From a virus (Duplodnaviria > Heunggongvirae > Uroviricota > Caudoviricetes), in IMG/VR virus record IMGVR_UViG_2778261303_000003: a DNA stretch of 11,130 bases. The stretch is one strand, 5' to 3'. The notes beneath the pieces were generated by a model that was not told where the DNA came from, ran no database searches, and saw only the letters and a list, made by a program, of their open reading frames with translations. Made by a program: the position numbers and the translations under genes. Of the stretch, positions 507 to 10,906 are shown piece after piece (the stretch's first letter is position 1; each line of letters begins with the position of its first letter).

Positions 507-791
507 TTTGTCGCTCCATGCGCTTGCTCTTCATCTAGCGGTTAAAATATTACTTCAAATCTTTCTGTATGAAGATTTGAGCACGTTGGCCTTACATACA
601 TCTGTCGGTTGTATTTCCCTCCAGAATGCCAGCAGGACCGCACTTTGTTACGCAACCAATACTATTAAGTGAAAACATTCCTAATATTTGACATAAATCA
701 TCAACAAAACACAAAGAGGTCAGACCAGATTGAAACGATAAAAACGATAATGCAAACTACGCGCCCTCGTATCACATGGAAGGTTTTACCA

Positions 792-1202
792 ATGGCTCAG
801 GTTGCCATTTTTAAAGAAATATTCGATCAAGTGCGAAAAGATTTAAACTGTGAATTGTTTTATTCTGAACTAAAACGTCACAACGTCTCACATTATATTT
901 ACTATCTAGCCACAGATAATATTCACATCGTGTTAGAAAACGATAACACCGTGTTAATAAAAGGACTTAAAAAGGTTGTAAATGTTAAATTCTCAAGAAA
1001 CACGCATCTTATAGAAACGTCCTATGATAGGTTGAAATCAAGAGAAATCACATTTCAGCAATACAGGGAAAATCTTGCTAAAGCAGGAGTTTTCCGATGG
1101 GTTACAAATATCCATGAACATAAAAGATATTACTATACCTTTGATAATTCATTACTATTTACTGAGAGCATTCAGAACACTACACAAATCTTTCCACGCT
1201 AA
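792..1202 (+). CDS. ybcV: YbcV-like prophage protein (DUF1398-type as I recall), function unknown
   Basis: Long ORF 669..1202; I place the start at the ATG at 792 ([11 protein letters not shown]..., 136 aa) because it has a GGAAGG Shine-Dalgarno 8 nt upstream. The upstream GTG at 669 and ATG at 750 lack a ribosome-binding site. Confidence 0.8.
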
Positions 1203-3561: not shown

Positions 3562-4644
3562 ATGAAAAAATTAACAGTGGCAATTTCTGCTGTAGCTGCA
3601 TCAGTACTGATGGCGATGTCTGCTCAGGCAGCTGAAATTTATAATAAAGACAGTAACAAGCTGGATCTGTACGGGAAAGTTAATGCTAAGCACTACTTCT
3701 CCTCTAATGATGCAGATGATGGTGATACTACTTATGCCCGTCTTGGCTTCAAAGGTGAAACCCAAATCAACGATCAACTGACTGGTTTCGGTCAGTGGGA
3801 ATATGAATTCAAAGGCAACCGCGCTGAATCTCAAGGTTCCTCCAAAGATAAAACCCGTCTTGCCTTCGCTGGCCTGAAATTCGGTGACTACGGCTCCATC
3901 GATTACGGCCGTAACTACGGTGTAGCATACGACATCGGTGCATGGACCGACGTTCTGCCAGAATTCGGTGGCGATACCTGGACCCAAACAGATGTATTCA
4001 TGACTGGTCGCACCACAGGTGTTGCAACTTATCGTAACAACGACTTCTTTGGTCTGGTTGATGGCCTGAACTTTGCAGCTCAGTATCAGGGCAAAAATGA
4101 CCGAAATGAAGTAACTGAAGCTAATGGCGATGGTTTCGGTTTCTCAACTACTTATGAGTATGAAGGATTCGGCGTGGGTGCAACCTATGCTAAATCTGAT
4201 CGCACTAATAATCAGGTTATCTACGGTAACAACGGTCTGAATGCTTCTGGTCAAAATGCTGAAGTATGGGCAGCTGGTCTGAAATATGATGCGAACAACA
4301 TCTATCTGGCCACCACCTATTCTGAAACCCAGAACATGACTGTTTTTGGTAATAACCATATTGCCAACAAAGCACAAAACTTCGAAGTAGTTGCACAATA
4401 TCAGTTCGACTTCGGTCTGCGTCCGTCCGTTGCTTATCTGCAATCTAAAGGAAAAGACTTGGGTGCTTGGGGTGATCAGGACCTGGTTGAATATATTGAT
4501 GTAGGTGCAACCTATTACTTCAACAAAAATATGTCCACTTTTGTTGACTACAAAATCAACCTGATTGATAAGAGCGATTTCACGAAAGCATCTGGCGTTG
4601 CTACCGATGATATCGTTGCTGTAGGTATGGTTTACCAGTTCTAA
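3562..4644 (+). CDS. nmpC: OmpC/OmpF-family general porin, prophage-encoded (NmpC/Lc-like moron)
   Basis: 360-aa ORF with a typical signal peptide ([23 protein letters not shown]), porin motifs throughout and C-terminal ...VGMVYQF; sits between Q and the lysis genes in the opposite orientation, as nmpC does in DLP12. Confidence 0.92.
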
Positions 4645-4832: not shown

Positions 4833-5216
4833 TTAATTAGAGTTATTAACAACGATATCCATCTCTAACCGGATATCTAATGCCATTAACATCCCTTCAA
4901 TTATACCCTCAGCCTTCTGTAACCTTTTCCCGATATAACCATCAGAGCAGCAATGCTTACCTGCCAGTGACATGAATGTCATACCGACTACATAATAATC
5001 TACTAATAAATCGTGCAAATCGCTGTTGTTCTTTTTCAGACGGGCCATGCACCCGCAAATGATCATCGCGTCATCGTCACAACATTGCGGGCGAGATTTT
5101 ACTTTTGAAGGAATTAATCCCTTAAAACCGGCGGCAATGGACGACCAGGTCACATCTTCATGATTATTAGCCGCCCACGCTCCCCAACGCTCAAGAACCA
5201 TCTGAATATCACGCAT
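4833..5216 (-). CDS. quuD: Late-gene antiterminator Q (DLP12 QuuD / phage-82-like type)
   Basis: Translation [24 protein letters not shown]... with cysteine cluster ([12 protein letters not shown] ... HCCSDG); ATG at 5216 preceded by GGAG; the longer track ORF begins at an upstream TTG. Confidence 0.9.
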
Positions 5217-5301
5217 CAACTTACTCCACAAAAATCAGACCAGAACGCCAATTACAAGCAAAAATCAACAAAACAGTATTAGTTGATTGTTATCTCTGAC
5301 T

Positions 5302-5439
5302 TCATACTCCTGCTCCTGTCAGGGTTTTGGCGTAATTCTTCAGTATTCGGTAATCGGTCAAAACAGAACCGGGGAAACGATATAAGCGCAGGCGCACCCA
5401 GCGGCGGCGAAGACGCTCTGCCATATAAGACTCAAACAT
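5302..5439 (-). CDS. ylcG: Small basic protein YlcG-like (45 aa), function unknown
   Basis: Not in the ORF track (under 60 aa); hand translation from the ATG at 5439..5437 gives [45 protein letters not shown] then TGA at 5304..5302. Its start overlaps the rusA stop (TGATG), and it sits between rusA and Q as in DLP12. Confidence 0.6.
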   Translation of the reverse strand: MFESYMAERLRRRWVRLRLYRFPGSVLTDYRILKNYAKTLTGAGV

Positions 5440-5801
5440 CATTCATCTCCCAGTTCGGTGATGGTCAGTTCCAGCCTCCCACCTTTGGTAACAGGCATCT
5501 TCACAACGCGGTAATCAACGACCTGAGCATCATCCAGCCAGAAACCTGCTTTAGTGAGTGCGTCAAAAGCGGCTTTTTGCAGATTATCCAGGTCACGGCG
5601 ACGGCGATCCGGCATGTGGCACTCAATGCGGATTTTCACAGGCATAGCCAGGCCGATATCCAGCATTGCGTTTTTAATGATTCGGGCGACGTTATCGCGG
5701 TATGCCTGCCCTTCTGCGCTGATGTGCGTGCGCCCGCGATTATGCCGGTAGTAGCGGTTATTGCTCGGAGGCCAGGGTAATGTGATGCTGTAGGTATTCA
5801 C
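5439..5801 (-). CDS. rusA: RusA Holliday-junction resolvase (crossover junction endodeoxyribonuclease)
   Basis: 120-aa [29 protein letters not shown]... matching RusA; the initiation codon here is GTG (5801..5799), overlapping the stop of the ybcO remnant (GTGA). Confidence 0.93.
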
Positions 5802-5926
5802 GCCTTAATAACCCCCTCTTTCAGCCAGATAACCTGTGTTCTCGCCATACCTTCCAGCGCGCATTCTTTTGCATATGCAGCATCGACTTGCTTGGCATGC
5901 CCTTTACCGGCAATCTTCTGTATGCG
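5798..5926 (-). pseudogene. ybcO: 3' remnant of a ybcO-like gene (DUF1364-type); N-terminal part missing
   Basis: Hand translation of the frame ending at TGA 5800..5798 gives ...[42 protein letters not shown], matching the YbcO C-terminus as remembered, but in-frame TAG codons at 5929..5927 and 5935..5933 and no plausible start leave only about 42 codons. Confidence 0.55.
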
Positions 5927-6007
5927 CTAAACCTAGATAGAATCCACTCTGTGCATATTGAAGCCCGCTCTATGCTTCCTTTCAGGTATTGAAGGGATTG
6001 AGATGGG

Positions 6008-6355
6008 CTAAGCATTATTGGCCTCCTGCATCAGGAGAAAGACAATCATGGCGGCGCGGAGAGGTCTGGTATCAAATATTGGGCTTACGCCTTTTGCATC
6101 CACACACCATTCAGTTAACTGGTCTAAGATAGAAATCCTGTATTTCTCAATAATCGGCCATGAAGCGCTCGGATCATTGCAGTAGTCAGGCAAATGATTT
6201 AATGGCTCAAAAGTTGTATCAGCATTTCCGTAATACCATTTGTTGGTGTTATTCCCTGATGTTTCCGGTTTACTTGCCCAAAGGCCTTTAAAAATTATGT
6301 CTCCTACCATTCTGTTAATTTCAAAATCACTTAACTGTGAATAATCCATTGTCAT
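6008..6355 (-). CDS. Uncharacterized nin-region phage protein (about 114-116 aa); family not recognised with certainty
   Basis: ORF 6008..6391; likely start at the ATG at 6355 (ATGA overlap with the ninE stop) or the ATG at 6349 (GAGG 8 nt upstream). Translation [62 protein letters not shown]... No catalytic motif recognised. Confidence 0.7.
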
Positions 6356-6528
6356 TTCCTCGCACGATATCTTAGCCACCGGATATCCCACAGGTGAGCT
6401 GTGTAATTGAAGGTTTTTACGTCAGATTCTTTTGGGATTGGCTTGCGTTTATTTCTGGAGCGTTTCGTTGGAAGGTATTTGCAGTTTTCGCAGATGATGT
6501 CGGTGAAACTTCGTCGCTGTCGCCTCAT
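6352..6528 (-). CDS. ninE: NinE-like protein
   Basis: 58-aa product from the ATG at 6528..6526: [58 protein letters not shown], closely resembling lambda NinE; the start overlaps the methyltransferase stop (ATGA). Confidence 0.85.
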
Positions 6529-7052
6529 GCCGCCCTCCTGACGCCCTGCCCGATCGCCATCAATGCCGCTTTGGATACGGTAGTAAACATCCGTCGAGGA
6601 CTGATGAACGGTCGCCAAATCAGCAGCATGGAGCCTTTGCTGTTTCCCTTCTTCTCCAGCCCTGTCGATGGTTCGATAAAATTAATCCGTCCATCAGTGA
6701 TAATGCGAACTTCGTCGACACTCTCCAGAGCCTTGCTGAACCATCCGACTGACATATCCTCTGGCACAAGCATAACTACCGTCTGTCGCTGTTGTATGCA
6801 CTGCTCAGCGGCTTTTTCCACCCACGGCCTGATATTGCTGTACGGTGGGTTATTCCAGATTGCACCGTGGCTTACCCACTCAGAATTGAGCGCGTCGTCG
6901 GCCTCAGTTAGCCAGTGAGCACACAGAGCATTTTTGTCGCTCGCTGCCGAATCCAGCCAGAATCCAAACTCAATATCCAGTGCATCAAAAAGCCAAAGCG
7001 GCGTTTGCCAGCAGTCCTTGTCGTGTGCTGGCGTATTTGATTTGATAGTCAT
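6525..7052 (-). CDS. Phage Dam-type DNA N6-adenine methyltransferase (small orphan MTase, no adjacent restriction gene)
   Basis: 175-aa product from the ATG at 7052 ([26 protein letters not shown]...), containing the NPPY catalytic motif ([14 protein letters not shown]); its start overlaps the ninB stop (ATGA). Confidence 0.85.
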
Positions 7053-7489
7053 GCAGCCCGATCTCCCCATCTCGCTTTCCACTCCAGAGCCAGTCTCGCT
7101 TCGTCTGACCACTTAACGCCACGCTCTGTACCGAATGCCTGTATAAGCTCTAATAGCTCCGCAAATTCGCCTACACGCATCCTGCTGGTTGACTGGCCTA
7201 TTACCACAAAGCCATTCCCGGCAAGGTTAGGAACAACATCCTGCTGCTTTAATGCTGCGGTAAACACACACTTCCAGCTTTCTGCATCCAGCCAGCGACC
7301 ATGCCATTCAACCTGACGAGAGACGTCACCTAAGCAGGCCCATAGCTTCCTGTTTTGGTCTAAGCTGCGGTTGCGTTCCTGAATGGTTACTACGATTGGT
7401 TTGGTTGGGTCTGGAAGGATTTGCTGTACTGCGTGAATAGCGTTTTGCTGATGTGCTGGAGATCGAATTTCAAAGGTTAGTTTTTTCAT
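7049..7489 (-). CDS. ninB: NinB (Orf family recombination mediator)
   Basis: Translation from the ATG at 7489: MKKLTFEIRSPAHQQNAIHAVQQILPDPTKPIVVTIQERNRSLDQNRKLW..., matching lambda NinB. Confidence 0.93.
   Translation of the reverse strand: MKKLTFEIRSPAHQQNAIHAVQQILPDPTKPIVVTIQERNRSLDQNRKLWACLGDVSRQVEWHGRWLDAESWKCVFTAALKQQDVVPNLAGNGFVVIGQSTSRMRVGEFAELLELIQAFGTERGVKWSDEARLALEWKARWGDRAA

Positions 7490-9891: not shown

Positions 9892-10906
<1,015 letters not shown>

Follow-up and report, generated by a model that had tools for sequence, protein, structure and literature searches.

The small gene that follows ninE in a lambda-like prophage is ninX, a member of a phage protein family built of conserved blocks and two hypervariable inserts

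Introduction

Which family does the small gene that follows ninE in a lambda-like prophage belong to, and what might its product do? Earlier work offers little guidance: papers call the nin-region genes of phage lambda nonessential, and one paper describes the functions of the nin-region genes of phage L as largely unknown. The gene considered here lies in a stretch of 11,130 nucleotides (hereafter the window) from virus record IMGVR_UViG_2778261303_000003, where a preliminary description had read it as an uncharacterised protein and as a candidate anti-defence or host-takeover factor.

Results

The gene is, with near certainty, ninX, which belongs to the accessory genes of the lambdoid nin region and whose name was first given in Salmonella phage P22. 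No motif had been assigned to the protein from its letters; Pfam family PF10765 (Phage_P22_NinX, formerly DUF2591) nevertheless matches it end to end (62 bits against a cut-off of 22.6, E 8e-17, profile positions 1-114 of 114), and also matches 111 of 111 diverse NinX relatives. The signature motifs of the family (SDFEIN, DYCNxP..AWPII and a third of 10 residues) are all present, in columns conserved at 90-100%. The protein is 100% identical to the 'Phage NinX' of Escherichia phage ev243 and 96.5% identical to the NinX of phage ST104, P22 NinX aligns with it over its full length at 61% identity (BLASTP E 1e-43; 62% by tblastn), and its RefSeq name is 'phage protein NinX family protein'. It also occupies the expected slot of the nin region: ninE lies upstream with an ATGA overlap, and ninF, here a stub, begins 8 nt ahead of the ninX stop, as it also does in P22. 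The label 'uncharacterised' is thus lost as regards identity, the protein having a named Pfam family and a RefSeq label, and survives as regards function: PHROG 444, which matches at E 3e-44, is annotated 'unknown function', the related folds are unannotated, and the literature on the family reports no function, consisting of genome-annotation tables and the one statement on phage L. Nor did the searches return a characterised housekeeping phage family, the outcome that the preliminary description had named as contradicting its reading.

The family is large and reaches well beyond lambdoid phages. Clustering at 50% identity leaves 1,927 representatives (E<=1e-3), and the window allele itself occurs, at a query coverage of at least 80%, in 607 of 5,426 complete E. 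coli genomes (11%). Relatives are present in 306 Vibrio phage records, in phages of Klebsiella, Yersinia and Aeromonas, in a 154-kb Phapecoctavirus and in a Bcep22-like Burkholderia podovirus; the carriers are temperate as well as virulent and infect several proteobacterial groups.

The reading frame flagged at 6008-6355 is real and yields the translation that had been quoted for its first 26 residues. It lies on the minus strand, a point missing from the preliminary description, and the protein of 116 aa given there corresponds to 116 codons, that is 115 codons and a stop. The longest mechanical ORF starts with a GTG at 6391 and encodes 127 aa, its extension lying inside ninE and finding no support among homologues. 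Two ATG codons compete for the start. The first (6355..6353) forms an ATGA with the ninE stop TGA (6354..6352) and would add Met-Thr (6350..6355); an overlapping start equivalent to it is annotated in the P22 record. The second, at 6349, opens a coding sequence at 6008..6349 with 113 aa and a stop at 6010..6008. By inspection, the 3' end of ninE holds a Shine-Dalgarno-like element, GAGGAA (6361..6356), which stands 6 nt upstream of the second ATG and touches the first. RefSeq PGAP chose the second ATG (MDYSQL...) in a 99.9% identical E. coli record, and NinX homologues from distant hosts start with M-(D/N)-Y-S/E. Given the PGAP call, the spacing of GAGGAA and the N-termini of homologues, the second ATG is more likely the true start, and residues are numbered from it below. 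Short plus-strand ORFs overlap the gene.

The window is a segment of a lambda-like prophage with its early-right operon on the minus strand, in the order cro, cII, O, P, ren, ninB, Dam, ninE, ninX, rusA, ylcG and Q, followed by a porin gene and lysis genes. Within this operon, ninB (7489..7049), a phage Dam-type N6-adenine methyltransferase gene (7052..6525) and ninE (6352..6528; 58 aa by PGAP; Pfam PF05322, E 1e-41) precede ninX, and rusA (5801..5439, with a RusA Pfam match) and Q (5231..4833) come after it. The chain of ATGA-coupled genes reported earlier was recovered, with ATGA overlaps at ninB/Dam (7049-7052), Dam/ninE (6525-6528) and ninE/ninX. Translational coupling of ninX to ninE is plausible from this layout whichever start is used, because the second-ATG start is separated from the ninE stop by just 2 nt. 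Scans of ninX and its surroundings for Rfam families, tRNAs, and promoter-like and terminator-like sites returned none; the lack of a promoter or terminator at ninX agrees with a position inside a long operon. The mechanical ORF of ninE (6352-6618, minus strand) is longer than the annotated gene: it has 88 aa and a TTG start, its 30 additional upstream codons running over the end of the Dam gene, while Pfam covers only its residues 31-88 and the ATG of the 58-aa PGAP version is that of the ATGA overlap with Dam.

Downstream, ninX does not abut the ybcO remnant as had been thought. Between the two lies the ninF stub (5950..6015, minus strand), whose ATG at 6015 places it over the last 8 nt of ninX; the remnant, a DUF1364 (ybcO-type) 3' end annotated as a pseudogene in the RefSeq 99.9% identical locus, is found at 5798-5887 (minus strand), just upstream of rusA. 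The first 22 residues of the stub are 73% identical to P22 NinF and the homology then stops, at what we read as a deletion scar; the reduction of ninF to a stub sets the window apart from P22. The chimeric ORF that contains the stub (5821-6015, minus strand) runs from the NinF N-terminus out of frame into the scar and the ybcO remnant. In nucleotide comparisons, 6010..5958 aligns at about 89% with the stretch where ninX meets ninF in P22-like phages. Viral contigs with an identical NinX are colinear with the window in 55 of 80 cases downstream of ninX and in 59 of 80 upstream, as judged to the end of the fetched 1.5-kb flank or of the contig, and the arrangement of ninX, ninF stub, ybcO remnant and rusA appears from these alignments to be common to most of the 80.

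Other parts of the window were noted in passing. The porin gene (3562-4644, plus strand) is complete, of OmpC/NmpC type (Pfam Porin_1, E 1e-152), and lies between Q and the holin, lysozyme and Rz genes, and it resembles a lysogenic-conversion 'moron' of the kind found in the late region of DLP12-type prophages. A Bor lipoprotein gene (PF06291; 1493-1786, plus strand) and a DUF1398 gene (669-1202, plus strand) are accessory genes past the lysis cassette. The repressor gene (10193-10906, plus strand) combines HTH_3 and Peptidase_S24 domains, its product being, we presume, nearly identical to lambda cI. RefSeq labels near the repressor in the 99.9% identical locus are replication protein P, ren and lambda-type CII, and the prophage seems to combine immunity and replication genes of lambda type with a late region like that of DLP12.

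To what extent is this neighbourhood shared by the family? Of 75 species-level NinX loci drawn from GTDB genomes, 11 have a Dam homologue and 20 have NinB no more than 4 kb away; tblastn places a homologue of the window NinE nearby at 6, and ORF clustering finds a NinE-like ORF immediately upstream at 17 and NinG/Rap downstream at 19. A linkage between Dam and NinX was considered and rejected on these counts. P22 has the same ninE-ninX-ninF slot with overlapping junctions, and differs from the window in carrying ninD where the latter has its methyltransferase. Besides the NinE-like ORF, the 75 loci revealed no conserved partner gene outside lambdoid phages, and this ORF is itself absent from the Vibrio-phage and Phapecoctavirus contexts inspected, where the neighbours of NinX are unrelated small hypothetical proteins. 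Because its neighbours differ in this way among phages, ninX is best described, on comparative grounds, as a self-contained module that travels from one accessory region to another.

Of the 75 loci, about 32 lie outside prophages. They belong to Rahnella, Rouxiella, Ewingella, Hafnia psychrotolerans, Chimaeribacter and related MAGs, where a NinX-like gene of about 100 aa (PF10765, E 9e-12) is found on the chromosome, for instance at L060:3998-4300 (plus strand), L038:3944-4246 and L052:3920-4246, with about 30 more. The gene order there is conserved: an oppA-like gene, DUF1482, DUF2766, yobH, mgrB, yebO, the NinX-like gene, DUF4060, an MBL-fold hydrolase gene and a cspC-like gene, with the DUF4060 gene always next after the NinX-like one. 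These copies keep the family motifs and look like domesticated versions of the phage gene, and a function confined to infection is hard to reconcile with them.

Column conservation, entropy and gaps, computed from 225 full-length members that were the best matches to the window protein and its profile and not a random sample, divide the protein into three near-invariant blocks and two hypervariable inserts, all on the minus strand. Block 1 (aa 1-16; 6302..6349) includes the start of helix 1 of the AlphaFold2 model and follows the family pattern M-D-Y-S-x-x-S-D-F-E-I-N-x-x-V. Insert 1 (aa 17-54; 6188..6301) is defined by entropy and gaps and has a pLDDT of 56-69. Block 2 (aa 55-74; 6128..6187; D-Y-C-N-N-P-x-D-A-W-P-I-I-x-x-x-x-I-S-I) contains Cys57, helix 2 and strand 1. 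Insert 2 (aa 75-94; 6068..6127), delimited by conservation, the model and comparison with P22, forms a predicted beta-hairpin, is a P22-type cassette, and across the family keeps only W81 and A85. Block 3 (aa 95-113; 6011..6067) corresponds to the C-terminal helix 3, with a 13-letter family pattern at aa 95-109. Cys57 is invariant, R98, A100, M101 and L105 are conserved at about 99%, and six polar residues are conserved by identity: D8, N12, C57, N58, D62 and R98.

The inserts vary to such a degree that the alignment of these proteins of about 115 aa takes up 472 columns. Insert 1 ranges from 6 to 59 residues and insert 2 from 11 to 39, and at 50% identity the 225 members display 136 types of the former and 129 of the latter. 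Versions of insert 1 at least 90% identical to that of the window are paired with 10 mutually unrelated types of insert 2; conversely, versions of insert 2 at least 90% identical to that of the window are paired with 7 unrelated types of insert 1. From these pairings, the two inserts evidently assort independently among phages, and we found no paper describing such a pair of independently assorting hypervariable inserts in NinX. The comparison with P22 offers a direct example: block 1 and the C-terminal half (aa 55-113) are nearly identical in the two proteins, whereas insert 1 (aa 17-54) is unrelated, so that the window NinX reads as a recombinant relative to that of P22. A mosaic junction is also visible in DNA, near codon 65 (WPII), in E. 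coli WP3-S18-ESBL-09 (L161:1026-1394), whose NinX of 122 aa matches the window gene over codons 1-65 (96.9% DNA identity) and departs from it thereafter; this copy lies between DUF551 genes and the small terminase subunit gene, not in the ninE-ninF slot.

Several other irregular copies were examined. Two further partial E. coli megablast matches had been candidates for cassette junctions and were dropped as evidence of shuffling because they are insertion scars: ninX is truncated by IS1 in E. coli 300081 (L160:1201-1470) and by IS3 in E. coli FY26 (L162:1201-1299). Apparent domain fusions (P0030 NinX-DUF1364, P0034, P0101, P0002 NinE-NinX and P0150) look like deletion or read-through artefacts and were set aside as giving no functional hint. 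One of them, P0150 (152 aa), has a Cys-rich C-terminal extension, CTFCDGNG...CPQCEGKC, resembling a DnaJ-type zinc-finger motif; either NinX reads through into a small gene downstream, or the protein may truly have two domains.

The core of ninX is under purifying selection. Against P22, the C-terminal half gives dS 0.25, dN 0.064 and dN/dS 0.25, and the N-terminal block dN/dS 0.15. Other DNA retrieved for the family was either nearly identical, as in the 80 viral contigs, or, at 30-40% aa identity, too distant for comparisons at single sites. Could the gene all the same have arisen by chance, or be decaying inside a defective prophage? Remnants of ninF and ybcO lie next door, and some E. coli strains carry the IS-truncated copies just mentioned; against this, the frame is intact and of full length and recurs unchanged in isolated phages as well as in 80 viral contigs, the protein matches its family from end to end, and dN/dS is 0.25. 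The size of the family (1,927 representatives) and this dN/dS make ninX more than a chance ORF, and together with the family match and the identity of the allele in phages they effectively refute the reading as a remnant, to which we leave a negligible probability.

The preliminary description had proposed structure prediction as a check. AlphaFold2, run with a 56-sequence alignment, returned a pLDDT of 85.7 and a pTM of 0.79, with helices at 8-19, 60-69 and 96-112, strands at 73-76, 81-85 and 88-93, and low confidence at about 21-50. The predicted fold is probably a three-layer alpha/beta/alpha arrangement similar to that of the 'phage ABA sandwich' proteins 1R7L (from a phage of Bacillus cereus) and 4PUP (from Burkholderia cenocepacia J2315), which share only 12-16% sequence identity with NinX. 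Foldseek against the PDB agrees with the model, its significant matches being uncharacterised proteins only, the nearest of them unannotated structural-genomics entries; a fold search of BFVD retrieved only uncharacterised viral proteins. Family PF18066 (Phage_ABA_S), to which we take 1R7L to belong, does not match the window protein at E<=1 and matches only 2 of 111 NinX relatives, weakly (E about 0.1), which hints at a remote kinship between NinX and an equally uncharacterised family. Searching PDB sequences with the protein alone, and with two family profiles, yielded noise only (thioredoxin, E 0.04; a designed protein, E 0.44; AC54, E 1.1). T7 gp1.2, an inhibitor of host dGTPase (7U65), matches NinX in the generic range and has no sequence relationship to it; we do not take this as evidence of a shared function. 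NCBIfam holds no match for NinX, and no enzyme family or catalytic fold was matched in Pfam, NCBIfam or fold searches of the PDB.

Discussion

These observations are best accommodated, in our estimate with a probability of about 0.55, if ninX is a nin accessory gene whose product is a scaffold with a variable binding surface. Embedded as a cistron within the long rightward delayed-early operon (cro-cII-O-P-ren-ninB-dam-ninE-ninX-...-rusA-Q), ninX would be translated in tight register with ninE to give an acidic, soluble protein of about 13 kDa with an alpha/beta/alpha fold. By analogy with lambda and P22 the protein would act early in lytic growth, and it would be dispensable for plaque formation if the lambda nin genes, called nonessential, are a guide. 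The three near-invariant blocks, which correspond to the three helices and the first strand, would serve as scaffold and might also offer an unvarying docking face, and the two inserts would provide a variable surface that tunes or diversifies the recognition of partners.

Whether such a protein binds or catalyses is more finely balanced. The window protein has a pI of 4.5 and a charge of -6, and acidity holds throughout the family (median pI 4.66, median net charge -6), which argues against direct binding of nucleic acids. Since NinX is acidic, matches no enzyme family or fold, and has polar residues that can be read as helix caps, we lean to a non-enzymatic protein-binding module, at about even odds. 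The caps, S7-D8-F9-E10, N59-P60-x-D62 and N95-P96-L97-R98, were read from the sequence against the predicted helices. Three points weigh on the other side: the polar residues keep their identity more strictly than a scaffold alone would demand, and might belong to an active site or bind a ligand; the inserts could owe their hypervariability to relaxed constraint instead of selected diversity; and the nearest structures carry no annotation of their own.

The first of these points can be taken further, by regarding D8, N12, C57, N58, D62 and R98 as a catalytic site, a ligand site or a site for a conserved partner, and the inserts as merely tolerated loops. In favour of this, the invariance of Cys57 and the conservation of R98, D8 and N58 (at least 90-99%) extend across Enterobacterales, Vibrio, Arcobacter and Polynucleobacter, the domesticated chromosomal copies retain the same motifs, and the core is under purifying selection. 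We nonetheless think a conserved site of this kind unlikely: a protein of 113 aa, made of three helices and a small sheet, has scant room for a pocket, several of the polar residues stand at predicted helix N-termini and may be structural, and the searches for enzymes were fruitless. A role as a nucleic-acid or ribosome binder is far less probable again. It would rest on a C-terminal alpha-beta-beta-beta-alpha unit resembling a double-stranded RNA-binding domain or the ribosome hibernation factors HPF/RaiA, but the likeness is one of topology only: NinX has an extra N-terminal helix and an insert, its surface is acidic, and neither a basic RNA-binding motif or surface nor a significant fold match to such domains was found, so that fold score and charge both led us to reject the resemblance.

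An anti-defence role, the suggestion from which the analysis started, would be one form of the protein-binding module and would have NinX neutralise or decoy a host immune protein, with the inserts as specificity loops diversifying in an arms race. Some general features are compatible with this idea: NinX is small, acidic and an early accessory product, its two surface inserts show extreme and independently assorted diversity, phages of many hosts, temperate and virulent alike, carry it among small hypothetical genes, and in the window phage an orphan Dam methyltransferase is encoded nearby. The methyltransferase, which had been offered as an argument, loses its force once P22 is seen to have ninD in that place and Dam to accompany so few of the 75 loci. 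In Pfam, NCBIfam, PHROGs, and fold searches of the PDB and BFVD, no label or fold linked NinX to a characterised anti-defence protein, and PADLOC defence-system models gave no family match at E<=1. As the support is generic and includes nothing specific, we judge anti-defence improbable, to much the same degree as a conserved active or ligand site. More doubtful still is an extended version, drawn from the sequence comparisons, in which NinX would be a rigid display scaffold whose shuffled cassettes retarget it to diverse host proteins (immune sensors or effectors), one lineage having been captured by the host beside mgrB-yebO in Rahnella, Rouxiella, Ewingella, Hafnia and Chimaeribacter.

For the scaffold with a variable binding surface that we prefer, the locus itself is not the novelty: ninX is already known, long catalogued and annotated in public genomes, and its presence in this prophage was to be expected, so that the finding as such is of little weight. 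The family has a wider bearing. It is large, and giving it a function would annotate a great many genomes in one step; its architecture of two cassettes, and the domesticated copies on chromosomes, provide concrete experimental handles.
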